DNA of 64,000 bases from Candidatus Saccharimonadia bacterium (GCA_038245115.1 JBBRSS010000002.1:7020-71019), one strand, 5' to 3'; shown: positions 851 to 40,212, numbered from the stretch's first letter. Numbers and translations: made by a program. Notes: generated by a model not told the origin, from the sequence alone.

Positions 851-3800
851 TCCTATGGCGGTAACGGGTTCCTCCAATCCGCCACCGTCGGTCAAGACAC
901 CAATTGGCACCACATTGCCGCCACCTACGACGGTACTACTATGAAAGTCTATGTCGATGGCACCCTCGACGCCTCCAGCGCCGTCTCGCTCTCACTGCCC
1001 GACTCCGACCAACCGTTGCTCGTCGGTGCCACCTTTGGCGGATTCTCCTCCGAATCCGGCTGGGCCCAAGGCTACTTTGCCGGCCAGCTCGATGAAGTGC
1101 GCATTAGCAACATTGCCCGTTCTGGTGCCGGCTTCATCGACAAACCGTATTCTACCAACCAACTCCTCGTAAGCCCCTTAGGAGCCGTACTCTCAAGCGG
1201 CATTGCCAGCTGGAGCGCCTTTAGCGACAGTTCCACTTTAAACGGCGGCACTATTAACTACCGCCTCACCACCGACAACGGCGGAATTTGGAAATACTGG
1301 AACGGTAGCGCCTGGGTAGTCTCCGCCAGTATCGCCCAGTCCAACACCGCCAGTGTCATTAACAGCCATATCAGTACCTTCCCCGTCGTCCTCGGCGGCG
1401 GCATTAAATGGCAAGCCGGCGTTCAGGGCGATGGCACTCAGCGAGTTACCCTAGATTCTGTTACGGTCACCGGCATAGCCGATACCACCCCACCGGAAGT
1501 CAACGCTACGAATGTAGTCATGTCCAAAACTAATGGGGGACCAGCCGTCGCCTCAAACAACTGGACCAATGGCGCCTCACCGTACTTCAGCTGGACCGCC
1601 GGCACCGACGCCGGAGCGGGGATCTACGGCTACTGCCTCTACCTGGGCCAGACCGCCGCTTCCGACCCCATCAGCACCAAAGGCCAACTCGGCGCCTCAC
1701 CGCTCGACACCACCGGCACCCCGTGCTCGTTCATTGTACCCAGCACTAATGTCGACCTGGCCACCGCCGGGTACCTGGCTAGCCCCCTTGCCTCATCCAA
1801 TAGCCCCTATTACCTGTATGCCACCGCCATCGACCGCGCCGGTAACGCCGTCGCCAACACCACCACCGACTTCCAATTCCGTTTCGACAACACCGCCCCC
1901 TCCAATCCCGCCTTCATTACGGCCCCGTCAAACTTCATCTCCACCAAATCAGCCACTCTCACCTGGCAAACCTCCGGCGCCGACTCAGCCAGTGACGCCA
2001 ACGCCGGCCTCGCCGGCCTCCAGTACCGCATCGGCGCGTCCAGCCCCTGGTACGGCGTCAGCCATAATGGTGCCCAAGACGCCACCGACCTCCTCCCCAA
2101 CAATGGCAGCTACACCACCCAAAGCACCCCCGACTTCGCCAACCTCATCGAGGGCAACAACACCATCTACTTCCGTACTTGGGACGCGGCCGGCAATGTC
2201 AGTCCCGTGTACGTCACCACTGCCCTCAAAATCAACTCCAGCTCACCATCCTCACCCCAAAACCTCACCGCTACTCCCGCTTCTAACTCAACCAATTATT
2301 TCGGCTTCTCATGGGTGGCGCCAACCAGCTTTGCCGGCCAAGCCAGCAACATCACCTACTGCTACACCGTCAACACCACGCCTACAGTAGCCAACTGTAG
2401 CTATACCGCCGCCGGCGTTACCAACATTACCGCCGGCGCCTATGCCACCCAACCCGGTGATAACACCTTCTATACCGTCGCCAAAGACGAAGCCGGCAAC
2501 ATCAACTACGCCACTGCCGCCAGCACCATCTTTACCGCCAACACCTCCGCCCCGGGGGTACCCCTCAACCCCGACGTTGTCGACGCCAGTATCAAATCCA
2601 CCAGCACCTGGCGCCTCGCCCTCACCTGGAATCCCCCCGCCAGCCTCGGTGCCGGCATTGCCGCCTACCGCATCTATCGCTCCACCGACAACACCACTTT
2701 CTCCGTTGTGGCTACCACTTCCTCTACCAGCCTCGTCGACACCGGTCTCAGCCAAGTCACCTATTTCTACAAGATCAAAGCTTGCGACTCCACCAATAAT
2801 TGTGGTGCGTCTAGCCCAGCTGTTTCCAAGCTCCCCACCGGCCGCTTCAGCGAGTCTGCCAATTTGCTTAGCCAACCCGAAGTCAGTAACGTCACCACGC
2901 GTCGCGCCACCATTCAATGGGTCACCGATCGCACCAGTGACTCACGCATCGCCCTCGGTACCAAATCTGGCAGCTACTCCAGCGACGAAGTCTCCAACTC
3001 GGATCAAGTCACCGCCCACAGTATCAACCTCACAAATCTTGCCGCCGGCACAACCTATTTCGCCGAAGCTAAATGGACCGACGAAGACGGCAACCTTGGC
3101 TCCTCCGACGAATTTAGCTTCACCACTGCCCCAGCCCCCAGCGTAAAAGAAGTCTCCAATATCACCATCGGCCTCAATAGTACCTCCATCAAGTTCACCT
3201 CCAAGGGTGCTGTGAGTGTCAAAATCTACTTTGGCAAAACCGACAGCTTCGGCGGTACGCACGTGCTCAACACCTCGACCGCCGAATCTGCCTACACAAC
3301 CCAGCTCACCGGCCTCGACGACGGCACCAAATATTTTTACAAGGTCAACACCTTTGACGCTGACGGCAATGAATATGACTCCAGCGTCTTTAGCTTCACC
3401 ACGCCCTCACGCCCGCACATCTCCGATCTCCGCTTCCAGCCCGTGGCCGGCGAACCCACCAGTACCCAGCTCATATCCTGGACCACCAACGTACCAACCA
3501 CCTCCGGTATCCAATACGGGCCCCGCGGTACTAACCAGCAGGAAGTCAGCGACTCCAAACTCACAACCGATCACCAAATTACTATCTCCAACCTCACTGA
3601 CAATACCGATTATGTACTGGTTGCCACCTCACGCGACACCTCCGGGAATCAAGCTGTCAGCGACCAGCAATCCTTCCGCACCGCCCTCGACACTCGTCCG
3701 CCCAAAGTAAGCGCCGTTACTATTGAACCCAGTATCAAAGGCACTGGTTCTGATGCACACGGCCAAATTGTAATCTCCTGGAAAACCGACGAACCCGGTA

Positions 3801-4066
3801 CCAGCCAAGTCGAATTTGGCCCTGGCTCCTCCGGTAACACGTACGCTTCTAAGAGCGCCGAAGACCAAAACTACACCCGCGACCATGTCGTTATCGTCTC
3901 GGACCTGCCAACCTCTACCGTTTTCCACTTCCGCGCCGTCTCACATGACCGTGCCGCGAATCAAGCCACATCCGACGACCAATCAACCATCATCGGCCGC
4001 GCTACCGATAGCGTACTCAGCATTATCTTCAACGCCCTATCAAATATCTTTGGATTCCTCAAATAA
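1..4066 (+). CDS. Giant cell-surface protein, 5' partial (open in frame to base 2, no start in window). It has about 6 tandem 47-aa propeller/Kelch-like repeats, a LamG/ConA-like domain and multiple Fn3 / purple-acid-phosphatase-N-like domains.
   Basis: 1347-aa ORF 23..4066 with the frame open upstream to the window edge. Repeats read 'G(N/K)LY(A/V)GLG..A.DAEVW.WNG..W..IGGD.LN..W'. LamG-like 'HHIAATYDGTTMKVYVDG...LDEVRISN'. Repeated 'W..P......Y.Y' Fn3 modules. 'TTRRATIQWVTDRTSDSRIALGT' resembles the PAP N-terminal Fn3 domain. Confidence 0.8.
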   Translation, partial: ATTYENAMSMISYAGNLYVGLGTTANDAEVWKWNGSTWSQIGGDSLNSGWGAGFEEVFTMATYNGKLEVGLGNSANDAEVWQWNATAWTRIGGDSINSGWTANYERVSSLAVYGGNLYAGLGLTAGDAEVWKWNGTAWSKVGGDGLNASWNLNYEQVESMIPYNGKLYAGLGNSTGDAELWEYDGTSWTQIGGDGLASSWVDGQYEQVKSLAVYNGKLYAGLGNTAGDGEVWEYDNGAWAKVAGNSLNSSWGNAIETVQSFAVYHGKLYAGLGNTANADAQIWSYGGNGFLQSATVGQDTNWHHIAATYDGTTMKVYVDGTLDASSAVSLSLPDSDQPLLVGATFGGFSSESGWAQGYFAGQLDEVRISNIARSGAGFIDKPYSTNQLLVSPLGAVLSSGIASWSAFSDSSTLNGGTINYRLTTDNGGIWKYWNGSAWVVSASIAQSNTASVINSHISTFPVVLGGGIKWQAGVQGDGTQRVTLDSVTVTGIADTTPPEVNATNVVMSKTNGGPAVASNNWTNGASPYFSWTAGTDAGAGIYGYCLYLGQTAASDPISTKGQLGASPLDTTGTPCSFIVPSTNVDLATAGYLASPLASSNSPYYLYATAIDRAGNAVANTTTDFQFRFDNTAPSNPAFITAPSNFISTKSATLTWQTSGADSASDANAGLAGLQYRIGASSPWYGVSHNGAQDATDLLPNNGSYTTQSTPDFANLIEGNNTIYFRTWDAAGNVSPVYVTTALKINSSSPSSPQNLTATPASNSTNYFGFSWVAPTSFAGQASNITYCYTVNTTPTVANCSYTAAGVTNITAGAYATQPGDNTFYTVAKDEAGNINYATAASTIFTANTSAPGVPLNPDVVDASIKSTSTWRLALTWNPPASLGAGIAAYRIYRSTDNTTFSVVATTSSTSLVDTGLSQVTYFYKIKACDSTNNCGASSPAVSKLPTGRFSESANLLSQPEVSNVTTRRATIQWVTDRTSDSRIALGTKSGSYSSDEVSNSDQVTAHSINLTNLAAGTTYFAEAKWTDEDGNLGSSDEFSFTTAPAPSVKEVSNITIGLNSTSIKFTSKGAVSVKIYFGKTDSFGGTHVLNTSTAESAYTTQLTGLDDGTKYFYKVNTFDADGNEYDSSVFSFTTPSRPHISDLRFQPVAGEPTSTQLISWTTNVPTTSGIQYGPRGTNQQEVSDSKLTTDHQITISNLTDNTDYVLVATSRDTSGNQAVSDQQSFRTALDTRPPKVSAVTIEPSIKGTGSDAHGQIVISWKTDEPGTSQVEFGPGSSGNTYASKSAEDQNYTRDHVVIVSDLPTSTVFHFRAVSHDRAANQATSDDQSTIIGRATDSVLSIIFNALSNIFGFLK

Positions 4067-4863: not shown

Positions 4864-6103
4864 ATCAATCAAATCCGGCGCCTATCTGGATCTCGAATCT
4901 CACTATGGCCAACACCACTTGCGGCTTCGCATCATCGCCTATATGGTCTACCGCAACCTGGTATCGCGCAAACTTCGCACATTTCTTACCGCCGCGGGTG
5001 TCCTCATTGGCATTGGCTCTATCACTTTCCTAGTTTCGCTCGGACTCGGGCTACAGAACCTAGTCTCAAAGCAAGTCATAGGCTCGAAATCCGTAACCGC
5101 TATCGACGTCACCCCACCCGCCTCGGGGATTGTCAAACTCGACTCCACTAATATCAGCAAGATCCACAGCATCGCCCATGTCAAAGATATCGCGAAAGAT
5201 TTCACGCAAGCCGGCAAAGCCACGCTCGGTGGCTCAAGCACCGATGTTGTTATCTACGGCGGCGATCAAAACTATCTCGACCTCAGCTCGCTCCACCTTG
5301 TGACCAGCGGGGGACTGACTCTCGGCCAAAACCAGATTCTTGTGAATGCCTCGCTCCTCAAGCTCATCGGCCTAGGCGACCCAGCCGGAGCTATCGGTAA
5401 AGCCCTCAAGCTAGACATACTTGTCACCAACCCCGACGGCACCAAACGCCACCTACCGGCCGACGTCACCATCAAAGGCGTAGTTGACACTGGTAGCGGC
5501 TCCGAAGTCTATATGGCCGACAGCTTTTTCAGCGCTGCCGGGCTCACCACATATGCCCAGCTCAAAGTGGTAGCCGACGATCGTGCCAACGTACCCGCCA
5601 TTCGTCAACATATCGAAGCCCTCGGCTTCAGTACAGCCTCGCCTCTAGATACCTTGGCCCAGATCGACCAAGTCTTTGTGTTCTTCAATTTCATCTTGGC
5701 CGGCTTTGGCGGCATTGGCATGCTCATTGCCGTGCTCGGTATGTTTAACACTCTCACCATTTCGCTCCTCGAACGAACTCGCGAAATCGCTCTTATGATC
5801 TCGCTTGGCGCTCGGAGGAAAGATATCCAGCGGCTATTTATCGCCGAGGCCATTGGCCTGGCTATTCTTGGCGGGGTGGCAGGACTGGTCGCATCATGGC
5901 TGCTCGGACTAGCCATCAACATTGCTCTCACCCAGCTGGCCCATGGCCGCGGCGTCAACGATACCGTTACCATCTTCAGCCTGCCCTGGTGGCTCGTGCT
6001 CGACACCCTTGGCCTTGTTATTGTGCTAGCGCTTATCGTGGTGGCATACCCGGCCTGGCGTGCTGTCCGCGTCAACCCGATTGACGCCCTGCGCCACGAA
6101 TAG
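4856..6103 (+). CDS. ABC transporter permease, FtsX/MacB family
   Basis: N-terminal TM, an extracytoplasmic domain, then 3 C-terminal TMs with an FtsX-like 'ERTREIALMISLGARRKDI' motif. AAAGGAG sits 8 nt upstream of GTG 4856; the ORF track starts at ATG 4829. Confidence 0.8.
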   Translation: MAKSIKSGAYLDLESHYGQHHLRLRIIAYMVYRNLVSRKLRTFLTAAGVLIGIGSITFLVSLGLGLQNLVSKQVIGSKSVTAIDVTPPASGIVKLDSTNISKIHSIAHVKDIAKDFTQAGKATLGGSSTDVVIYGGDQNYLDLSSLHLVTSGGLTLGQNQILVNASLLKLIGLGDPAGAIGKALKLDILVTNPDGTKRHLPADVTIKGVVDTGSGSEVYMADSFFSAAGLTTYAQLKVVADDRANVPAIRQHIEALGFSTASPLDTLAQIDQVFVFFNFILAGFGGIGMLIAVLGMFNTLTISLLERTREIALMISLGARRKDIQRLFIAEAIGLAILGGVAGLVASWLLGLAINIALTQLAHGRGVNDTVTIFSLPWWLVLDTLGLVIVLALIVVAYPAWRAVRVNPIDALRHE

Positions 6104-6232: not shown

Positions 6233-8089
6233 TTATGCGACGGCTTCGCAAACCCCCATATACATAGTCGGCAGACGCAATGAGTCATTGCCGTTGGCGT
6301 CCAAAGGGTCGACACTGGTGCTGAACTCACGAACTTGTGCCAAAGGTACAACCACTCGTCCGGCCGAGGAGGTTTGAACGCGTTGCCGTAAAGTTGGTAA
6401 ATCCGGTGATGTATTATGCTCGACCCAATTTAGGTCGATGCCGCAATCTATCAAATACGTCTGCAGTATCGTTTCAGGATGATAATTCGCCGCGCGAAAC
6501 TCCGGCCACGTACCCATGTCTTTACCTTTGTACGCCAGCTGGACTTTAGTCAGTTCCGCGCGAGCAAGGTCCGCGAACTTCATCGGATTAGTATTGGAGT
6601 TACTATCGCGCTCAACGGTCGTAAACGACAGCGAACCGAGGCTGAACCTGGCATCATCTCCATCATGCTGGCTTAGGACGAGGTCTTCGGGTCGGGTCTG
6701 CCCCTCCACGCTTGCTAGAGAGGTATGTACTCGGTCCAGCCCGCCCCTTATAGCATCTGCCAGACCGATGGTGAATATACCCGGAAAATGCTCTATTTTC
6801 GGGTTATTCCGCAACGTGTGACCGGTATTGCCCCCGGTATGCGTCGCGTAGGTGCGGTAATCGAGGGCCTTCCCCGATGGAAGCTCGGCATAGGTCGTGA
6901 AGTGAATCTGATTACTAGCATCAAGATCATTAGTCGAAGTCAGGCCGTGGTCATACTTGGGTTTTAGACCGCCGTTTTTCATGACCTCAAGCGAGAACGG
7001 GGTTGTATGCTCGAGGACAATGTCACCGGCCAAGGTAGCACGGGCAAAATTCTCGTCACTCGCCTGCCCCAGTTCGGTTAACCGTCTTAACGAATGGGCT
7101 GACCACAAGGTTGCCCGGGTATCAGGTGTTCCCCGCGCTTGCAGCAACCACTTATAAGCTGCAATTAAGCTGGTATCTAAGCCGTGCTGTTTAATCTCAG
7201 TTCTTGCTCGATTGCCTGCCAGCGTAGCATCTGAATAGAGCCCGCTACTCAACCGCGCCACGGCTTCTGCAGTATCAAGGCTATCGGTCGGGCGCGGAAG
7301 TTGACTAATTATTTCGATCCGCAACTGTTGAGCACAAAATTCATAATCAATTTTATCAATACCACCGATTCGAAGCAGCTCATTAACGGCCTGACTGTGC
7401 GGCGTCACCAACCGCATCTCCTGGTCGATATCACCGTCAGCACTGATAAGCATATGGGCTAAACTACGCAGTGAAGAATGATTTTCGGCCGTAAAGTTAT
7501 CCTCATTTAAGGGTTTCTCGCCGCCGGCCAATAGCGCCTCATCTTCGGCTGCATCCAGGCGCTCAGCTAACTTGGCTTCAAGAAAAGCGAATTTAGTTTT
7601 ACTGCGGGCAATATTTGGAGTGCCGCTCACGATTTGCTTCGCCTGTGCCATGGCGGCCTTATCTCCGCCCCTGAGACCAACCAATATAGCCTTAGTACTA
7701 ATCGCCGTGTCATATGCACGTCGCGCGGCATCGCTACTAAAGATCTCGCCACCCAAATTACCGCTATCACTTTCGTGCCGAAGCCAGCTTATCGCCCCGT
7801 CAGTGAGCTCGCCGGCCAGCGTTTCGGCGGTAAGGTTACTTTGTTCAATCGTTCGCAAAGATCCCTCTGCCTCAGCAATCTGGCTCATTATTGCCTGCAT
7901 GTAATAATCAACACCTTGCTCAACTGTTTCCTTGTCGCGTTCCCCTAAACGATCTAGGTAGGTCTCAGGTGGTACGGGCGGCAGATCGGCGACATCTGGA
8001 GTCGACTGTAAATCAACGGCGGCTGGATGCCTCTCTTGAGATTCGGTTGGCCGTTCATTGCTTTCAGATTCAGGCATCATGGGTTTCAT
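6233..8089 (-). CDS. Hypothetical 618-aa protein with no recognisable domain and no signal peptide
   Basis: Long clean ORF with balanced composition, flanked by AT-rich non-coding DNA (6104-6232, 8090-8441). Confidence 0.6.
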   Translation of the reverse strand: MKPMMPESESNERPTESQERHPAAVDLQSTPDVADLPPVPPETYLDRLGERDKETVEQGVDYYMQAIMSQIAEAEGSLRTIEQSNLTAETLAGELTDGAISWLRHESDSGNLGGEIFSSDAARRAYDTAISTKAILVGLRGGDKAAMAQAKQIVSGTPNIARSKTKFAFLEAKLAERLDAAEDEALLAGGEKPLNEDNFTAENHSSLRSLAHMLISADGDIDQEMRLVTPHSQAVNELLRIGGIDKIDYEFCAQQLRIEIISQLPRPTDSLDTAEAVARLSSGLYSDATLAGNRARTEIKQHGLDTSLIAAYKWLLQARGTPDTRATLWSAHSLRRLTELGQASDENFARATLAGDIVLEHTTPFSLEVMKNGGLKPKYDHGLTSTNDLDASNQIHFTTYAELPSGKALDYRTYATHTGGNTGHTLRNNPKIEHFPGIFTIGLADAIRGGLDRVHTSLASVEGQTRPEDLVLSQHDGDDARFSLGSLSFTTVERDSNSNTNPMKFADLARAELTKVQLAYKGKDMGTWPEFRAANYHPETILQTYLIDCGIDLNWVEHNTSPDLPTLRQRVQTSSAGRVVVPLAQVREFSTSVDPLDANGNDSLRLPTMYMGVCEAVA

Positions 8090-14163: not shown

Positions 14164-15672
14164 TTGTCGGACATGGTAAGGTCGCCTTCGATCAAACAAT
14201 ATATGTACAAAATCCCCGCCACAATTCAGCCCACCAAGATCACCGCCTTAGACGAGATACTAAAGGGCGGTATACCATATGGCTCCCTAGTATTAACCAC
14301 TGGTCCCGCTGGTGGCGGCAAGACAACCTTGGCCCAACAGTGGCTCTTCGAAGGCGCCAGACACCTAGAAGAAGTTGGTCTCTACATTTCGTTCACCGAA
14401 GAAATCGATAAAGCCATTCGTAATATCGAACAATTTGAATTTTTTGATAAATCCTACATAAAAACTGGCAAGATCTGCTTTATAGATGGCCGCACGCTAC
14501 TAATGGGCATGCCCTTTAAGCAAAAACCATCGTTTGATCTCATCGAAATGGACCAGCTACTGACCGTCATTATGAATTTGGTCGATCAAACTCAGGCCAA
14601 ACGCGTAGTGATAGATTCTATTACGGCCTTAATCTATAAGCTCGAAGGCGTCGACGCCGTCCGGAGCTTCATTTTTCGCCTTGGCTACGCTCTTTCCCGG
14701 CCCGGCGCCACCGTAATGCTCATTGGCGAGGCCGACCTCAACGCCGGCTATCAGTCGCCAGTAGAAGAGTATATTTCCGACGCCATCATCTATGTGGATA
14801 GTGGGTCTGGGCGCAACCAACAAATGCGCAAGCTCGAAGTCAAAAAAATGCGCGGCGTAAACTATCGCTCCGGCCCGGCCTATTTCGAAATCACCAATAA
14901 AGGTATCACCCTATACCCCAAAATTCCCACCTATGGACTAACCGCTTTAACCGACTTCAAAACCCGCCGCAAAACTGGCATCAAAAAGCTCGACGAAATG
15001 ATGGGCGGCGGGATCCCTCAAGGTCACATCCTACTAGTCGCTGGCAACACCGGCTCCGGCCGAACAACACTCGGCATGCACTTTCTGGAAGCCGGTATCC
15101 TTCAGGGTGAAGCCGGATTATTTGTATCTATCGACGAATCTATGACCCAAATCATCAAAACTGCCAAAGAACACGACTGGGACTTCGACAGGCACCTCAA
15201 AGATAAAATGCTGATCAACGTTCCCAGCGACCAAATTGATATTTATCCCGACAAGCTGCTTTATCAAATTGTCCGCGCTGTCGAAGACAACAACATCAAG
15301 CGAGTCGTAATAGACTCAATTTCCTCTATGGAGTCAAGCGAGTTTGCACGAGATTACGTGCGTGACTTCCTGCTGCAGTTAACAGCCTTCTTTAAAAGCC
15401 GCGGCATCAACTGCTTGGCAACCTACCTGACCACCGAGATGTTCGGCGCGCCCAACAAACAGTTGATGGGCGGCACCGTATCATCGGAACTGCAACTCAG
15501 CTCAATTGTCGACGGCATTATCCTCACTCGTTACGTGGAGCGCGACCAAGAAGTTCGCAAACTGGTCAGTATTCTCAAAATGCGCGGCTCAAACCACGAT
15601 AAGGGGATATATGAGTTCAGCATTGGTAAGGCGGGACTGATTTTGGGTAACCAGTTTAAAGATGACTTATGA
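14164..15672 (+). CDS. KaiC-like double RecA-fold ATPase
   Basis: Two RecA/KaiC modules. Walker A 'GPAGGGKTTLAQQ' in domain 1 and 'GNTGSGRTTLGMH' in domain 2 (K to R). The start is uncertain (TTG 14164, ATG 14173 or ATG 14203). Confidence 0.8.
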   Translation: MSDMVRSPSIKQYMYKIPATIQPTKITALDEILKGGIPYGSLVLTTGPAGGGKTTLAQQWLFEGARHLEEVGLYISFTEEIDKAIRNIEQFEFFDKSYIKTGKICFIDGRTLLMGMPFKQKPSFDLIEMDQLLTVIMNLVDQTQAKRVVIDSITALIYKLEGVDAVRSFIFRLGYALSRPGATVMLIGEADLNAGYQSPVEEYISDAIIYVDSGSGRNQQMRKLEVKKMRGVNYRSGPAYFEITNKGITLYPKIPTYGLTALTDFKTRRKTGIKKLDEMMGGGIPQGHILLVAGNTGSGRTTLGMHFLEAGILQGEAGLFVSIDESMTQIIKTAKEHDWDFDRHLKDKMLINVPSDQIDIYPDKLLYQIVRAVEDNNIKRVVIDSISSMESSEFARDYVRDFLLQLTAFFKSRGINCLATYLTTEMFGAPNKQLMGGTVSSELQLSSIVDGIILTRYVERDQEVRKLVSILKMRGSNHDKGIYEFSIGKAGLILGNQFKDDL

Positions 15673-16016
15673 GCATAAACCAGCCTCCAGAGCCCCCGAA
15701 GCAAGAAGATGATCAACTCGCAGTGATCCGCCGTGAAATCAATATTCGCAGTTACGGCATTATCAAAGGGATCATGGGCGGCCGCATTGTTGATTCGTTA
15801 CCACTCAGACTAAGGTGCGAATGCACTATGCCTATCTGTGAAGAAAACATTGAGGTTAGCCTAGCTAAGCGTCGCGAGCTGCGGCGAAATTATCCACACG
15901 GATTTATTGTTGTACCACTACACGCCAAATCCGCCCAAGATACTACGTTGTGCAAGACAAATGAATTCAAGGTAATAGAAAAACTAAATTTTACCGATGC
16001 GGTCACCGATCTGTAA
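15669..16016 (+). CDS. Hypothetical small protein, translationally coupled to the KaiC-like gene
   Basis: ATGA start/stop overlap with the upstream gene; contains 'CEC..C' cysteines. Confidence 0.45.
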   Translation: MSINQPPEPPKQEDDQLAVIRREINIRSYGIIKGIMGGRIVDSLPLRLRCECTMPICEENIEVSLAKRRELRRNYPHGFIVVPLHAKSAQDTTLCKTNEFKVIEKLNFTDAVTDL

Positions 16017-16097: not shown

Positions 16098-17075
16098 CTA
16101 GCAGGGCAGTCTGGACGGAAGCCGAACAGGGGTTACACCCGGGTAACGACGGCAAACCGTGCGATGCTGCACCGCCAATCCGTGTTGGGCTTGCCCCAGG
16201 AAAGTTGGGTTGAACCCATTCCAGCCCATGTGCATCAACACCGTGTCGCCTGCGCGCGCATACCTGAGTACGTAGGCGACAAGCTGAGCGGTTGTCTTGC
16301 CAAGATAGTCGCTAGTATCGACACTCGCGTCCCACTCCAGAATATGAGCTGCCGCGAATGCCCGCCGCGCGGTTGCGTTCATCTCCAGATAGGGCGGCCG
16401 GGCAAAGTTAGTTACTACGCCCGGAGCCCTAAGCTCGCGCAGAACCTGCGCATAAGTCAGCCGCGGGTAGTGAGGATGCGTGACCGAATGGTTGATCACG
16501 TACTGTCCGTGCGACCGGGCCAGAGCCGGCAAGTCGACGCCGTAGCGCGCCCTGAAACTGGTGATGCAGTTGCCCGTCGGCGCCAACACCATCCCGATGT
16601 TATGTGCTCTGGCGCTAACCAAAGCGCTCCTCAGGGACGTCAGCGACCTCGGGCAGTCGTCGTACGTGAAGATCACCCGGCTGGTGTAATTGGGCCCCTT
16701 GAGCCTGTTGTACCCGGAGGGGACAGGAGCGGCCGAGCCCCGAAGGCGCGACCATGTGAGGGCACCGATAATGCCATCGGCTACCAACACGCGAGACGCC
16801 TGGAAGCGCTTCGTCGCGGCCAGCGTGCCAGCTCCGTACTGGCCGTCTGCGCCAGCCGGACCAACACCAAAACCGTGAGCAATGAGCGCTCGTTGAGCCA
16901 CCGCCACGCAGCTACCCCTGTCACCGGGGCGAATCGTTGGCAACTTGGCCGTTGGCGTCGACACACTGCACGCCACGGTTGCCGCTTGGGCGGGAGTTGC
17001 TGCCAATGCTACTGGCGCGACCAGAGTTGCCGCAGTAGCAGATATCACCAACAAGCGTCGCATCATGATATTCAT
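16098..17075 (-). CDS. Secreted peptidoglycan-binding polysaccharide deacetylase (PG_binding_1 + NodB homology domain)
   Basis: Signal peptide 'MMRRLLVISATAATLVAPVALAATPAQA'. PG-binding 'GDRGSCVAVAQRALIAHGF..DGQYGAGTLAATKRFQ'. NodB 'VIFTYDDCP', 'DTVLMH'. Local GC is markedly higher than the neighbours. GGAAGG 6 nt before the ATG at 17075. Confidence 0.75.
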   Translation of the reverse strand: MNIMMRRLLVISATAATLVAPVALAATPAQAATVACSVSTPTAKLPTIRPGDRGSCVAVAQRALIAHGFGVGPAGADGQYGAGTLAATKRFQASRVLVADGIIGALTWSRLRGSAAPVPSGYNRLKGPNYTSRVIFTYDDCPRSLTSLRSALVSARAHNIGMVLAPTGNCITSFRARYGVDLPALARSHGQYVINHSVTHPHYPRLTYAQVLRELRAPGVVTNFARPPYLEMNATARRAFAAAHILEWDASVDTSDYLGKTTAQLVAYVLRYARAGDTVLMHMGWNGFNPTFLGQAQHGLAVQHRTVCRRYPGVTPVRLPSRLPC

Positions 17076-17229
17076 GAGCATCCTTCCGATCGTGGGCAAT
17101 TGTCTCTATACAAAAAACAATCGCCCGAAATATTGGACCACTCAAGTTTGTACCCTAGAAACAGCCGATTCATTGTAAGAACTTTCAAATATGACCGGAC
17201 TCAAAATAAAATGCTTTACATTGGCCTTT

Positions 17230-17412
17230 GAATATATATACTGCTATTACGTTAACAACTTGAGCCCCTCGTACTTGGAAGCCGGTGAGATACCGGCGCT
17301 GTGCCGCAACTGTAATGTTACCATTGAGTAATAAGCCAGGTCGTCGTACGAGATTAATCCCGAGCAGGAGTAATATTTACTTAATCGTCACCGGGTGACG
17401 ATTTTTTATCTT
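17230..17412 (+). ncRNA. Cobalamin (B12) riboswitch-like leader with terminator
   Basis: 'GGAAGCCGGUGAGAUACCGGCGCUGUGCCGCAACUGUAA' matches the conserved cobalamin-riboswitch core (GGAA..CCrGUG..A.yCyGG.GCUG..CCGCAACUGUAA). A partial B12-box 'AAGCCAGG' follows, then an intrinsic terminator immediately before the gene. Confidence 0.5.
17383..17408 (+). terminator. Intrinsic terminator (expression-platform hairpin)
   Basis: AAUCGUCAC-cgg-GUGACGAUU perfect 9-bp stem followed by UUUUUUAUC. Confidence 0.6.
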
Positions 17413-17440
17413 CAATCCTCGCTTGACCAGTGAGGATTTA

Positions 17441-18073
17441 TTGTTTAAAAGATTTGCCACATTTGTGAAGCAGCAAGTACGCCCATTCGGGATACTTGGT
17501 CTTGGGCTAATCCTGATCGGCACGATAAGTGCCCTTGGCGGAGTCTGGCAATATCGGACCAACCTTGCCCAGGTTTCAACCTCGTCCAGTCCAAAAGTCG
17601 CTGGCACGCCCACAAAATCATTCGGCCCCGCCCCCTCCGGCACCCCAGCGCCAAATCAGCCCCCACCCAGCGTAAACCTCGCCAACTCAAATATAAAAAC
17701 TTCAACCTCTAGCTCCAGTTCGATCGTGGCATCATCAACCCCGGCGCAAAGCGCCCCGCCCGCCCAAGCCCCAGTTATGGTTACCGTATCACTGCGCATC
17801 AACGGCACCAACAAAGGCAACGTAATACTACCCAGCACCAGCAAACAATGTGAAGTATTAACTCGGGCGCTTAATGACGGACTCATCAGCAGCCTTTTCA
17901 TGCCATATGACGCGGCGCAACACACCTATGGCGTCTACCAGATTAACGGCCTTGGCGACCCTACCATTGTGTGGTGGACATATACCGTCAACGGCAGCCC
18001 TCCGCCATTAGGGTGTAGTTATTTAACGGTTCACAACGGCGATTCAGTTAATTGGCAATATATAAAATCCTAA
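17441..18073 (+). CDS. DUF4430 (transcobalamin C-terminal beta-domain-like) protein with N-terminal TM anchor and Ser/Pro-rich linker
   Basis: 'LRINGTNKGNVILPS...EVLTRALNDG...YQINGLGDP....WWTYTVNG' fits the DUF4430 pattern. The start is chosen at TTG 17441 (GAGGA upstream); the track starts at TTG 17423. Confidence 0.65.
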   Translation: MFKRFATFVKQQVRPFGILGLGLILIGTISALGGVWQYRTNLAQVSTSSSPKVAGTPTKSFGPAPSGTPAPNQPPPSVNLANSNIKTSTSSSSSIVASSTPAQSAPPAQAPVMVTVSLRINGTNKGNVILPSTSKQCEVLTRALNDGLISSLFMPYDAAQHTYGVYQINGLGDPTIVWWTYTVNGSPPPLGCSYLTVHNGDSVNWQYIKS

Positions 18074-18084
18074 GGAGTATTCGG

Positions 18085-19404
18085 ATGTCTCGGTTTTCAG
18101 TTAAGCAAGCAATCTCAAGCACATTAGTCTCAGTTCTAATCCTGGCGCCCATACCGTCAATGGTATCGGCCGCCGCCAACACCGACCCGGCCACCGCCGC
18201 ACTCGCGGGCACCAAATATCTGGCCGCTAACCAAACCAGTACCGGCTCCATTGGCAGTAATCCGGGTGATACCGACTGGTCAATCATTGCCATCCAAGCA
18301 GCCGGCCAAAACGCCGCAACCTTCAAGACTGGCAGCGGCGCCTCAGCCTTAGACTTTATGGCCGCCGATACCCTCCCGTCCACCGCACCCGCCACATCGG
18401 TGGAACGCCGCATTCTGGCCATTGCTGCAGCCGGCCAAGACACCACCCAGTTCGGCGGGGTCGACTACAATACCCGCCTCAGAAGCCTCTACACTGCTAA
18501 TCAAATCGGCAGTGCGACTCTACTCAACGACGACATCTTTGGCCTCATTGCGATAAACGCTACGCACGATAGCACACTCAAGGTTATGGCTCAGGACAGC
18601 CTGAACTTCCTACTCGCACATCAGCAAGCCGACGGGGGATTTAGCTATACCGCCGACACCTGCGCCCTATACTGTGGCAGCGACAGTAATGATACTGCAG
18701 CGGCCATTATCGCCCTTGGTGCCGCCCAAGATATGTCGCTCACCAATGCCGGTCTGGCCACCGCCCAAACCAAAGCTCTGGCCTACCTACTAAGCACCCA
18801 GCAAACCGATGGAGGGTTTGGCTACGACGCCCTTAGCTCATCCGACGGCAGCTCAACTTCCTGGGGCTTAATGGCGCTCAATCTAGTCGGACCCACCGCC
18901 CAGGCCCAAGCCGGCTCTGCCCGCACTTGGCTGCTCAAAGACCAAAACACCGATGGAGGGTTCAGCTACGCCGCCTATGGCATGACCGCCAGTGACGCTT
19001 CAACTACCGCACCATCCGTTCTGGCTTTGCTAGGCACTACCTGGCTATTAACTCCCGCACCGCTTAAACCCGCGCCTACCCCAACAGCAACGCCAGCACC
19101 CACACCTTCGGCCGCTGTCACTCCAGCCACAACCCTAAACTCAGCAGCCTCGTCCCGGTCAGCGGCTGTAACAAAAGTTGCGACATCTGGCATTCAGCCC
19201 CAGGCGGACTTAATCGCCGCAGCCGCCATCCCAACCGCAGCCCCCACCGGATCGGTCCAGGGAGCCTCGCAAACCAAACCGACCCAGGTCCAAGACACAG
19301 CCGCGGACTCAACCCCCAATTTACCCCTCTATGGAGCCATCTCTCTGCTAGCTATAGCCGCAATCTGGTACGTGATACAATCAATCCTAAGAAAGAAGGT
19401 TTAA
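18085..19404 (+). CDS. Prenyltransferase/squalene-oxidase-repeat (alpha/alpha toroid) surface protein with signal peptide and C-terminal TM anchor
   Basis: Repeated 'Q(A/T)DGGF(S/G)Y' prenyltransferase-beta-type repeats. N-terminal signal 'LVSVLILAPIPSMVSAAA'. Thr/Pro-rich linker and a C-terminal TM. AAGGAG 7 nt before the ATG. Confidence 0.7.
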   Translation: MSRFSVKQAISSTLVSVLILAPIPSMVSAAANTDPATAALAGTKYLAANQTSTGSIGSNPGDTDWSIIAIQAAGQNAATFKTGSGASALDFMAADTLPSTAPATSVERRILAIAAAGQDTTQFGGVDYNTRLRSLYTANQIGSATLLNDDIFGLIAINATHDSTLKVMAQDSLNFLLAHQQADGGFSYTADTCALYCGSDSNDTAAAIIALGAAQDMSLTNAGLATAQTKALAYLLSTQQTDGGFGYDALSSSDGSSTSWGLMALNLVGPTAQAQAGSARTWLLKDQNTDGGFSYAAYGMTASDASTTAPSVLALLGTTWLLTPAPLKPAPTPTATPAPTPSAAVTPATTLNSAASSRSAAVTKVATSGIQPQADLIAAAAIPTAAPTGSVQGASQTKPTQVQDTAADSTPNLPLYGAISLLAIAAIWYVIQSILRKKV

Positions 19405-19405
19405 T

Positions 19406-20014
19406 ATGTCGGTTACTCGCAAACAAAGCGCCATTATGGTTGGTACAGTAATAATCAGCGCCATCATCATGCGTCTCGTCCCTCATATTCCCAACTTTGC
19501 TCCAATAACCGCGGCCGCTCTATTTGCCGCTGCTTATTTGCCCAAAAAATACGCCCTACTTGTGCCGCTAGCTGCCATCGCGGTCAGCGATTATCTACTG
19601 CTGTATATCAGTCCGTTTAGTGCCCAGGTTTTCAACTTCAGCCGCATTCAGCCTTTAAGCGCCATCGTCAACGACACCACGCTCTGGGTCTGGGGTAGCT
19701 TCATGATCAGTGGCTTGCTCGGGTTAGTCTTACGCCGCCGCCGCAGCGCCATTCGGGTAGGCGCCATCACCATTGCAGCCTCCCTACAGTTCTTCGTTAT
19801 CACCAACTTTGGCGTCTGGGCCGCCGGTGCCTACGCCCGCGACCTGTCCGGCCTGGCGACTAGCTACATTGCCGGCCTGCCCTTCCTCCGCGCCACTTTA
19901 CTCGGCGATTTATTCTACGCCGCCAGTTTCTTCGGTATCTACGCCCTAGCTACTCACTCGGCCAAATCCGAAGCCAAAAAACCGAATAATCTGCCCTCTA
20001 CGGCCACACTTTAG
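19406..20014 (+). CDS. Small polytopic membrane protein, ECF-transporter S-component-like (CbrT-like candidate)
   Basis: 202 aa with ~5-6 TM helices; ATG 2 nt after the upstream stop; in operon with the DUF4430 and toroid genes. Confidence 0.45.
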   Translation: MSVTRKQSAIMVGTVIISAIIMRLVPHIPNFAPITAAALFAAAYLPKKYALLVPLAAIAVSDYLLLYISPFSAQVFNFSRIQPLSAIVNDTTLWVWGSFMISGLLGLVLRRRRSAIRVGAITIAASLQFFVITNFGVWAAGAYARDLSGLATSYIAGLPFLRATLLGDLFYAASFFGIYALATHSAKSEAKKPNNLPSTATL

Positions 20015-38929: not shown

Positions 38930-39084
38930 CAATTCAATAGTCATATCAAGAGTGCAGTTAGGGATCTAGCCCGTTAACCTGCCGGCAACCCCATCCAAGG
39001 ATGGTAGGTGCTACTTCTAGCCCGCAAGGGAAGATATGTAGGCAAACCGCCTTTCTTCACTTAGCCGGGAGAAAGGTTTTTTTA
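38930..39084 (+). ncRNA. SAM-I (S-box) riboswitch with terminator, controlling metK
   Basis: 'AUAUCAAGAGUGCAGUUAGGGAUCUAGCCCGUUAACCUGCCGGCAACC...GGUGCUACUUCUAGCCCGCAAGGGAAGAU' matches the S-box core (AUCAAGAG..AGGGA..GCCC..AA.C..GCAACC). A CCUUUCU/AGAAAGG hairpin plus U7 sits immediately before the metK ATG. Confidence 0.75.
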
Positions 39085-40212
39085 ATGTCCGAATCACTAT
39101 TTACTTCCGAATCTGTCTGCGCCGGTCACCCCGATAAGGTCTGCGACCAAATCTCCGACTCCATCCTAGATGCCATCCTGGAGGACGACCCCACCGGTCG
39201 CGTGGCGGTGGAAACCGCGGTTACCAAGGACCGCATCATATTACTAGGCGAAGTCACGACGACCGCCCAGGTCGATTACAAAGAAATCGCCCGTGAGGTC
39301 GCCCGCAAACTCGGCTACACCGACCCCGCCTGGGGTTTCTCGGATCTGTCCGAAGTCCAAATGTATCTGTCGACCCAATCTCCCGAAATTGCCGCGGGAG
39401 TAGACTTGGACGGTGCCGGCGATCAAGGCATGATGTTTGGTTACGCTTGCCGCGAAACCCCGGAGCTAATGCCCTTACCAATTACGCTCGCCCACGCCCT
39501 CACCAGAGCGCTCGACGAAGCCGCCATTAGCACTTTGCCGTATCTGCGGCCAGACGGCAAAGCCCAGGTCACCGTCCGCTACCAAGACGGCCAGCCAGTC
39601 GGCGTCGAACACGTCACCATCGCCAAGCCTCATTCGCCTAAAGTTGAGCTAGATCAAGTCAAACGCGACATCATAAAACACGTTGTCATTCCAGTCCTCG
39701 CCAAATACGATTTTTCAATTGATCCCAGCAAGGTAGTAGTCAACGGCACCGGTGTCTGGCACACCCCCGGCCCGTCGATGGATGCGGGCCTCACTGGACG
39801 CAAGATTATCGTCGACAGTTACGGCGGCTATGCCAGAGTCGGTGGGGGAGCCTTCAGCGGCAAAGACCCGACCAAAGTCGACCGCTCCGGAGCCTACGCT
39901 GCCCGCTACATCGCCAAGAATATCGTTGCTGCCGGGCTTGCCGACCGCGCCGAAGTCAGCCTGGCCTACTTCATTGGCGCCAAGCAGCCCGTCATGAAAC
40001 ATATCGAGACGTTCTCAACTTCAGCCGTTTCAGACCTTAAGCTGAGTAACTTCACCAACGAGCTTATCGACACCAGCGTCAAAGGTATCGTTGAGACACT
40101 CGACCTACGCCGCCCGATTTTTGCTCGTACCGCCGCTTACGGTCATTTCGGACAGCCCGGCTACAGCTGGGAGCAAACAATTCGCGTTCCGGCCGCAGTC
40201 AGTACGAACTAG
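39085..40212 (+). CDS. metK: S-adenosylmethionine synthetase
   Basis: 'FTSESVCAGHPDKVCDQISD', 'GAGDQGMMFGYA' and 'GGGAFSGKD' motifs. Confidence 0.95.
   Translation: MSESLFTSESVCAGHPDKVCDQISDSILDAILEDDPTGRVAVETAVTKDRIILLGEVTTTAQVDYKEIAREVARKLGYTDPAWGFSDLSEVQMYLSTQSPEIAAGVDLDGAGDQGMMFGYACRETPELMPLPITLAHALTRALDEAAISTLPYLRPDGKAQVTVRYQDGQPVGVEHVTIAKPHSPKVELDQVKRDIIKHVVIPVLAKYDFSIDPSKVVVNGTGVWHTPGPSMDAGLTGRKIIVDSYGGYARVGGGAFSGKDPTKVDRSGAYAARYIAKNIVAAGLADRAEVSLAYFIGAKQPVMKHIETFSTSAVSDLKLSNFTNELIDTSVKGIVETLDLRRPIFARTAAYGHFGQPGYSWEQTIRVPAAVSTN

Follow-up and report, generated by a model that had tools for sequence, protein, structure and literature searches.

A probable corrinoid-scavenging operon with a DUF6580 membrane protein behind a cobalamin riboswitch in a Candidatus Saccharimonadales bacterium

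Vitamin B12 is needed by most bacteria but is not made by them, and bacteria of the candidate phyla radiation (CPR), such as Saccharibacteria, are extreme auxotrophs. For many lineages, the B12 importer of the inner membrane is still to be found (PMC6072759). Burroughs et al. (2007) defined a transcobalamin-like clade of SLBB domains in bacteria, described its fusions to alpha/alpha toroids, its signal peptides, and its operons with CbiO/CbiQ genes, and predicted that SLBB domain and toroid scavenge B12 and that animal transcobalamin is of bacterial origin (PMC1796856). In Pfam, the C-terminal domain of TCN proteins is covered by the family DUF4430 (PMC4350170). A preprint by Verplaetse et al. 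describes an energy-coupling factor (ECF) operon of L. sakei that encodes a beta-like and an alpha-like protein as separate exported chains, a modelled heterodimer of the two, and uptake experiments that its authors read as heme uptake (bioRxiv 10.1101/864751). On the membrane side, the ECF protein CbrT is a B12-specific S-component, an assignment that was motivated by the gene cluster nrdJ-cbrS-cbrT-pduO (PMC5997447). Here, we analyzed a 64-kb stretch of DNA from a Candidatus Saccharimonadales (CPR) bacterium (JBBRSS010000002.1:7020-71019), hereafter the window, in which a cobalamin riboswitch precedes three genes for a DUF4430 surface protein (open reading frame 1, ORF1), a toroid surface protein (ORF2), and a DUF6580 membrane protein (ORF3). 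Taken as a whole, this locus is probably a cobalamin-repressed corrinoid scavenging operon; its function in B12 uptake is strongly supported by context and likely.

The aptamer lies at 17268-17352 on the plus strand, where Rfam cmscan returned the adenosylcobalamin (AdoCbl) family RF01482 with 51.2 bits, just above its gathering score of 50 (E 1.8e-6 over the whole window and 1.1e-8 over a 400-nt region). The match spans positions 19-102 of the 149 in the model, and two overlapping weaker matches of the same clan (CL00101) were suppressed under it. The aptamer is of the short class-II/variant type, with CUCGUAC/GUACGAG as its outer helix and GGAAGCCGGUGAGAUACCGGCGCUGUGCCGCAACUGU as its core. 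Our own covariance model, R1, which was built from 12 aptamers of this kind, gave it 49.3 bits (17260-17350, E 8.5e-13). Across 38 related aptamers, 93.7% of the cells pair, and compensatory (double) changes occur in 14 of the 17 pairs; 0 of 500 shuffles were as good, and slid controls reached 28-43%, the alignment having been fitted to the model, which flatters these figures somewhat. The sequence-only reading of this DNA had recognised the conserved cobalamin-riboswitch core, and that string is indeed present at 17277-17315, within one base of where it was placed. It had expected a match to RF00174; a cobalamin-clan match above threshold was found, with RF01482 as the winning family instead. 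Its 9-bp terminator hairpin with a U-tract also stands: the stem-loop AAUCGUCAC-CGG-GUGACGAUU occupies 17383-17403 and is followed by U residues as far as 17407 (dG -10.3 kcal/mol, z -3.08). A promoter-like site (TTTACA-16 nt-TATACT, 17215-17242, plus strand; 10/12 in a consensus scan, a pattern match only) lies about 25 nt upstream of the aptamer.

Two further hairpins of the leader had not been described in that reading. The first, AUUA-UCC[CGAGCA]GGA-UAAU, folds at 17353-17374 (RNAfold), directly 3' of the aptamer. The second is a 10-bp hairpin at 17414-17438 (dG -12.7 kcal/mol, z -3.93); the Shine-Dalgarno sequence GAGGA (17432-36), 4 nt ahead of the TTG of ORF1, lies within its 3' arm. 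Both a terminator and a hairpin over the ribosome-binding site (RBS) are thus present downstream of the aptamer. The motif CC(C/U)-CGAGCA-(A/G)GG was found just 3' of the aptamer, beyond the RF01689 model, in 15 of the 15 leaders inspected (window, L002, L005, L006, L007, L010, L013, L014, L016, L018-L021, L024, and L045), and within the expression platform the hairpin at 17353-17374 probably serves as the P13/kissing-loop element. In relatives, CCCGAG, the 5' half of the CGAGCA hairpin, can instead pair with CUCGGG in a downstream U-tailed hairpin. This complementarity, seen in several relatives, suggests a conserved antiterminator/terminator switch, so that a ligand-stabilised aptamer and hairpin would free the terminator. 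By analogy with these relatives, the switch of the window would also act in the OFF direction.

The comparative set consisted of 83 DUF6580 loci from many phyla. A DUF6580-seeded scan of genome collections with a 14-sequence alignment contributed 80 of them (L004-L083), from Patescibacteria/CPR, Bacteroidota, Ignavibacteriota, Omnitrophota, Acidobacteriota, Chloroflexota, and Planctomycetota. Riboswitches were located by Rfam at the gathering threshold and by R1; the locus counts given below depend on a crude ORF caller and self-built hidden Markov models (HMMs), and the set is biased toward relatives of the window protein. The cassette DUF4430-toroid-DUF6580 is also found, amid differing flanking genes, in L002, L004-L007, L010, L013, L014, and L021, and it is permuted in L045 (DUF6580-DUF4430-toroid) and L027 (surface-protein pair on the opposite strand). 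Every cassette locus having upstream sequence carries an upstream cobalamin riboswitch on the same strand. The relatives' aptamers match RF01689 (36.6-53.7 bits) or RF00174 above threshold at the same position. Of the 83 DUF6580 loci, 48 or more have a same-strand cobalamin riboswitch, and 59 of the 61 R1 matches (E<=1) lie on the DUF6580 strand. When 59 riboswitches (R1 at E<=0.01 plus Rfam-only) were followed to the first downstream gene, it encoded DUF4430 in 22 cases, a TonB-dependent receptor in 9, and DUF6580 in 7. Conserved linkage to B12 riboswitches across genomes, on which the earlier interpretation had staked itself beforehand, was therefore found.

The genes around DUF6580 also point to B12. 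Its neighbours include DUF4430 (37 loci), the class II (B12-dependent) ribonucleotide reductase nrdJ (28), PduO-type adenosyltransferase (25), TonB-dependent receptors (21), NrdR (19), and BtuR/CobA (8). In CPR, the usual order is nrdR-nrdJ, followed by riboswitch-DUF4430-(toroid)-DUF6580-pduO. Since the relatives' B12-dependent ribonucleotide reductase adjoins the operon, DNA synthesis may depend on B12 taken up in this way.

Several of these loci contain additional riboswitches or genes. Two riboswitches stand in series before one gene in L027 (4118-4201 and 4260-4358), and successive genes each have their own cobalamin riboswitch in L045 (5830-5914 and 6479-6561) and in L031 and L035 (~5740-5895 and ~6540-6740). 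In L004, the sole riboswitch found (2187-2284, 42.4 bits) lies ahead of a gene at 2358-3959 for a 533-aa protein with no Pfam match; its position upstream of DUF4430-toroid-DUF6580 points to a B12-controlled operon of four genes. Proteins of 390-560 aa that form a loosely related family, with no Pfam match and no homologue in the window, are encoded beside the nrdJ / DUF4430-DUF6580-pduO cluster of CPR, each gene directly behind its own cobalamin riboswitch (L013:7359-9041, L014:7177-8820, L027:4411-5925, L028:7185-8588, L030:5990-7288, L057:4778-6124, L065:6687-7940, and L073:6546-7928). The L057 member ends in a CxxC...CxxC zinc ribbon. These B12-repressed genes may provide a B12-independent backup activity or encode another protein that handles corrinoids.

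Some record titles in the set disagree with the gene content. Metagenome-assembled genomes (MAGs) titled "uncultured Gammaproteobacteria" (L011, L012, L014, L018, L021, L026, L028, L029, L032, L036, L039, L057, L061, L062, L068, and L073) have, among those examined, CPR-typical genes (nrdR-nrdJ, DUF4430, and type IV coupling protein). The title of L031 is "Synechococcus sp. UW140", and its gene context is that of the Bacteroidota loci L035 and L041 (TonB receptor and DUF5074). The taxon labels or the binning of L031 and of the "Gammaproteobacteria" MAG records look unreliable.

The three genes behind the riboswitch are tightly packed on the same strand, as the sequence-only reading had stated, and Pfam bore out the classes that it gave them (PF14478, PF00432, and a protein with six transmembrane (TM) helices). 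ORF1 (17441-18073, plus strand) encodes 210 aa with an N-terminal TM helix (signal anchor), a linker rich in S/T/P, and, at the C-terminus, a DUF4430 domain, as delimited by Pfam PF14478 and the homologue alignment. Its start is most likely the TTG at 17441, after GAGGA, because homologue N-termini and a 210-aa database entry begin there. The PF14478 match (E 1.6e-8; 35.3 bits, cutoff 23.8) covers profile positions 26-71 of 72; a small DUF4430 paralogue in L068 scores 73.9 bits over positions 1-71. DUF4430 is the SLBB, transcobalamin beta-domain family, and in ORF1 the domain has two cysteines that are invariant in an alignment of 14 homologues. As a single sequence, full-length ORF1 also gave a weak match (E 0.29) to residues 310-429 of 4kki, the haptocorrin beta domain.

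ORF2 (18085-19404, plus strand; start codon ATG 18085) encodes 439 aa, comprising a signal peptide (..VSA|AAN, an A-x-A site), a toroid, a P/T/A-rich stalk, and a C-terminal TM anchor. It matches PF00432 Prenyltrans (E 5e-11) and PF13243, and it carries three Q-x-DGGF repeats. At E<=0.1, the Pfam scan returned Prenyltrans, SQHop_cyclase_C/N, and TED_complement only. In the AlphaFold2 (AF2) model, residues ~30-330 form a 12-helix (alpha/alpha)6 barrel with a predicted local distance difference test (pLDDT) score above 95; a disordered P/T/A stalk follows, and then a TM helix at 413-438. The C-terminus is a plain anchor and not a conserved LPXTG signal. Judged from the model, the likeness of ORF2 to the transcobalamin alpha domain is one of fold class only, a generic (alpha/alpha)6 toroid, and is not specific. 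Signal and anchor sequences and the conserved cysteines place ORF1 and ORF2, as predicted from their sequences, outside the cell. The motif LLNDDIFG of ORF2 is nearly invariant and stands at the start of an inner helix, where it recalls the DxDD site of cyclases. An active terpene cyclase was considered and rejected: the protein is exported and membrane-anchored, and it has NDD rather than DxDD, the first Asp being replaced by Asn. Membership of the terpene cyclase/prenyltransferase families was likewise rejected, as NCBIfam scores were 17-55 bits against cutoffs of 300-851, far below.

ORF3 (19406-20014, plus strand) begins 1 nt past the ORF2 stop and encodes 202 aa with six TM helices, a putative corrinoid translocator. 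It belongs to DUF6580 (PF20221, 159 bits against a cutoff of 27, E 1.5e-46, residues 7-185), which was its sole Pfam match; no NCBIfam model matched. Its relatives are named "DUF6580 family putative transport protein" at NCBI. The structure model (pLDDT 94.4; predicted template modelling score, pTM, 0.87) predicts a six-helix ECF S-component fold, shaped like BtuM. Part of the earlier description, an S-component-like permease, is thereby retained; the protein is neither CbrT nor a member of a recognised S-component family but DUF6580. The family conserves P-H-x-P-N-F-x-P in loop 1, D62, N134, W138, Y143, G149, and Y154, and from the positive-inside pattern and the model, loop 1 would face outward. 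It is large, with at least 4,158 clusters at 50% identity in an exhaustive HMMER search (E<=1e-3), and none of ten over-long DUF6580 proteins is a fusion with DUF4430. In the outward loop 3, 18 CPR loci including the window have an insertion of ~21 residues, LLYIxPFSxxxxNFSxxxPxxA (ORF3 residues 63-94), and most other members have a short loop 3 with a conserved G-F-H/Y motif. The long loop may be a docking surface. It occurs in 10 of 14 toroid loci versus 8 of 68 other loci, a comparison that is confounded by phylogeny and incomplete contigs and was not used.

On these grounds, we propose the following mechanism. When B12 is plentiful, it would bind the aptamer, the leader would form the terminator and the hairpin that hides the RBS, and expression would be off; when B12 is scarce, the three genes would be made. 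ORF1 and ORF2, held outside the membrane on long flexible stalks, would then capture the corrinoid, and ORF3, the only polytopic membrane protein of the three, would move it through the membrane, like BtuM probably with no ECF ATPase module of its own. A plausible inference, drawn because of transcobalamin structures and natural SLBB-toroid fusions (PMC1796856), is that B12 would be bound in a sandwich of ORF1 and ORF2 and handed over to ORF3. That ORF1 and ORF2 form such a split-transcobalamin complex, as the sequence-only reading had proposed, is plausible by analogy, with the balance tipped slightly the other way. B12 binding by any of the three proteins and the energy source of transport are parts of the proposal that we infer. 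The broader suggestion is that DUF6580 is an unrecognised, very widespread family of B12 importers with an S-component fold and no ECF module, fed in the monoderm-like CPR by a DUF4430 protein tethered to the surface and, in Saccharimonadia and certain other lineages, also by a toroid, as a non-covalent, two-chain counterpart of transcobalamin in animals; we put it forward tentatively, at a little under an even chance.

Several findings weigh against this proposal. The aptamer is only just over the Rfam threshold and has an atypical P6 insertion compared with its relatives, and in the window leader the antiterminator pairing is weak (~4 bp only). No riboswitch was found at ~35 of the 83 DUF6580 loci, a count that is an upper bound because R1, built mainly from relatives, detects class-I aptamers less readily and some contigs are incomplete. 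Searches of the window with HMMs, and with Pfam on 20 other large ORFs, found none of nrdJ, pduO, nrdR, and btuR. Neither the ORF1 family profile nor its isolated domain found a transcobalamin chain in the PDB. ORF2 gave no match to Cobalamin_bind (PF01122) in Pfam at E<=0.1, and its toroid is closer, in sequence and in structure, to class II terpene cyclases than to transcobalamin. As a single sequence or as a 59-sequence profile, DUF6580 showed no sequence link to BtuM, CbrT, or other solved S-components, and no PDB chain was found for ORF3, the chains of 6ffv and 8ovv being absent at E<=10. ORF3 is also without any cysteine, as are the conserved columns of the family, so that the essential cysteine of BtuM is lacking and cobalt ligation of the BtuM Cys80 kind cannot apply. 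Finally, the toroid is missing from 24 related CPR loci, in which a small DUF4430 gene immediately precedes DUF6580 (the DUF4430 of one of them matches Pfam with E 1.4e-20). The toroid is therefore an accessory and not a core part: what the module conserves as its core is DUF4430 and DUF6580, to which a toroid has been added in Saccharimonadia and some other CPR lineages.

These 24 loci, which read riboswitch-DUF4430-DUF6580(-pduO), bear on a first alternative, namely that the operon takes up B12 without any sandwich of toroid and DUF4430. DUF4430 alone would then be the partner of DUF6580 that binds the corrinoid, and the toroid would be a lineage-specific accessory, such as another binder that works independently, a scaffold spanning the wall, or an enzyme with a corrinoid or envelope substrate. 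The near invariance of LLNDDIFG, reminiscent of a cyclase active site, agrees with this alternative, as does the finding that no DUF4430-toroid fusion occurs among the 14 ORF1 homologues or among the 120 listed of 223 ORF2 homologues. However, wherever a toroid gene is present in the loci compared, it always adjoins the DUF4430 gene behind the same riboswitch, and fused SLBB-toroid proteins are known in other bacteria and in animals (PMC1796856). For an enzyme in particular, an extracellular position on a flexible stalk like that of ORF1 would be an odd site for terpene cyclization, and the first Asp of its DxDD is an Asn. We regard the alternative as rather doubtful.

How ORF3 is energized is the subject of a second alternative, in which DUF6580 is a conventional group-II ECF S-component that uses an EcfAA'T module encoded elsewhere in the genome. 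Two distant members of the family have sub-threshold Pfam matches (E 0.002-0.003) to the ECF families ECF_trnsprt and ECF-ribofla_trS, in favour of this alternative, and genes for group-II S-components are normally unlinked to the ECF module (PMC5997447). Against it, no ABC (ATP-binding cassette) ATPase gene, ECF-type or other (Walker A plus LSGGQ), lies within ~6 kb of DUF6580 in the 84 loci taken in by this check, and no EcfT/CbiQ-type gene is among the large neighbour clusters that were annotated, smaller clusters not having been scanned. Many members, moreover, stand beside TonB-dependent receptors in diderms (Bacteroidota, Ignavibacteriota, and Omnitrophota), and this is the niche of BtuM in Proteobacteria lacking ECF modules (PMC6072759). 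The lack of a linked ABC ATPase makes a BtuM-like solitary mode at least as likely as an ECF mode, and together with the frequent BtuB-type neighbours in diderm phyla, it is the reason why we favour the solitary mode and consider dependence on a distant ECF module unlikely. For ORF3, the label "ECF" should accordingly give way to "S-component-fold, BtuM-like, ECF module not evident".

The cargo might also be another tetrapyrrole or a corrinoid precursor, such as heme or cobinamide, instead of cobalamin. In L. sakei, the split alpha/beta pair and its ECF system were tied experimentally to heme uptake (bioRxiv 10.1101/864751), and cobinamide is also handled by ECF-CbrT and BtuM (PMC5997447, PMC6072759). 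The operon of the window, however, is under a cobalamin riboswitch, and its relatives co-transcribe a cobalamin adenosyltransferase and adjoin the B12-dependent nrdJ, which points to a corrinoid that ends as AdoCbl. CPR bacteria are also not known to remodel cobinamide, which counts against this alternative, and another cargo is very improbable. Lastly, the notion that the riboswitch is a chance match, 1.2 bits above the RF01482 threshold over part of that model, and that the three genes are an unrelated envelope operon was rejected, being effectively refuted by the window-wide E value, the R1 score, the strong covariation, and the conserved position of the aptamer in all of the orthologous cassettes.

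Other features of the window were noted in passing. On the plus strand, a riboswitch for S-adenosylmethionine (RF00162, 50.6 bits against 44.4) lies at 38940-39040, before metK (S-adenosylmethionine synthetase, 39001-40212, plus strand); because the listed metK ATG at 39001 falls inside the Rfam match, the true start is probably further downstream. Nearer to the B12 cassette, the minus-strand gene at 16098-17099 encodes peptidoglycan-binding and polysaccharide deacetylase domains and is overlapped by a long antisense ORF. Its guanine-plus-cytosine (GC) content is 59-65% compared with ~44-50% in the flanks, the B12 cassette having ~56% GC, and it looks horizontally acquired. A double-domain KaiC-family ATPase (PF06745, E 1e-92) at 14164-15672, plus strand, appears unrelated to the B12 operon; it is followed by a small ORF at 15669-16016 without a family match.

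If DUF6580 is confirmed as a B12 transporter, a large DUF family would gain a function across many phyla. The proposal, if true, would add a second solitary, S-component-like vitamin transporter that is unrelated in sequence to the first, and it would offer a way into the B12 dependence between episymbionts and hosts. A split alpha/beta surface pair would also be a tractable bacterial model for the origin of the two-domain transcobalamin trap. The hypothesis for DUF6580 is open to assays that are established for BtuM and ECF-CbrT.

Among the systems described before, the surface proteins of the window have counterparts. Like them, the SLBB proteins of Burroughs et al. are secreted or anchored, often occur with toroids, belong to bacteria that do not produce B12, and were predicted to be B12 scavengers; they differ in being fusions, mostly from Firmicutes, beside CbiO/CbiQ-type (ECF) genes, and their description includes no CPR, no DUF6580 partner, and no riboswitch control. 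The L. sakei operon Lsa1836-1840 combines an exported beta-like protein (Lsa1839) and an exported alpha-like protein (Lsa1840) with an S-component-type protein in one operon, and the same mechanism of extracellular capture followed by hand-over was proposed for it. In that account, the operon has its own ECF ATPases (AA') and T component, of which the window has none nearby, and the authors call the S component structurally homologous to ECF S-components; the partner in the window is DUF6580, and the parts of the text that were searched do not mention a cobalamin riboswitch, by which the operon of the window is controlled. With the alpha domain of animal transcobalamin, ORF2 shares, in its predicted model, the alpha6/alpha6 toroid fold. 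In contrast to animal transcobalamin, intrinsic factor, and haptocorrin (2bb6, 2pmv, and 4kkj), the window has its two domains on separate membrane-anchored chains with long disordered stalks, and the PF01122 signature of the animal proteins is missing from its toroid chain.

BtuM of Thiobacillus denitrificans (6FFV/8OVV; PMC6072759) is 16% identical to ORF3 in the structural alignment and shows no HMM-level similarity to it; its essential cobalt ligand, Cys80 in loop 3, has no counterpart in ORF3, DUF6580 conserves other residues (P-H-x-P-N-F-x-P, D62, N134, and W138), and no extracellular partner proteins are known for BtuM. The nrdJ-cbrS-cbrT-pduO order of ECF-CbrT in Lactobacillus delbrueckii (PMC5997447) mirrors the CPR order nrdJ/DUF4430/DUF6580/pduO; CbrT, however, is unrelated in sequence and needs a shared ECF module, and the copy of the operon in the window is without nrdJ and pduO. 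With the class-II/variant cobalamin riboswitches (RF01689; env8-type), the aptamer of the window shares its short form, the lack of a large P6 extension, and a hairpin after the aptamer; it differs in an extra small P6 hairpin and in its best score, which is to RF01482, and it appears to act through a terminator and an RBS hairpin and not through kissing-loop RBS occlusion alone.

In the literature that could be searched, nothing relevant was found on DUF6580, PF20221, PF14478, or IPR027954 in a B12 context, nor any account of B12 uptake in CPR (Patescibacteria/Saccharibacteria). Split transcobalamin-like B12 scavenging is not new in outline, having been in print in 2007 and 2019, and the claim of the sequence-only reading that no characterised bacterial system of this form was known proved overstated in view of Burroughs et al. 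(2007) and the L. sakei operon. What appears new is DUF6580 as the S-component-fold membrane partner, its link to B12 being apparently undescribed in that literature. Also new are the strong, multi-phylum association of DUF6580 with cobalamin riboswitches and B12 salvage genes, and the riboswitch-DUF4430-(toroid)-DUF6580 module of CPR.

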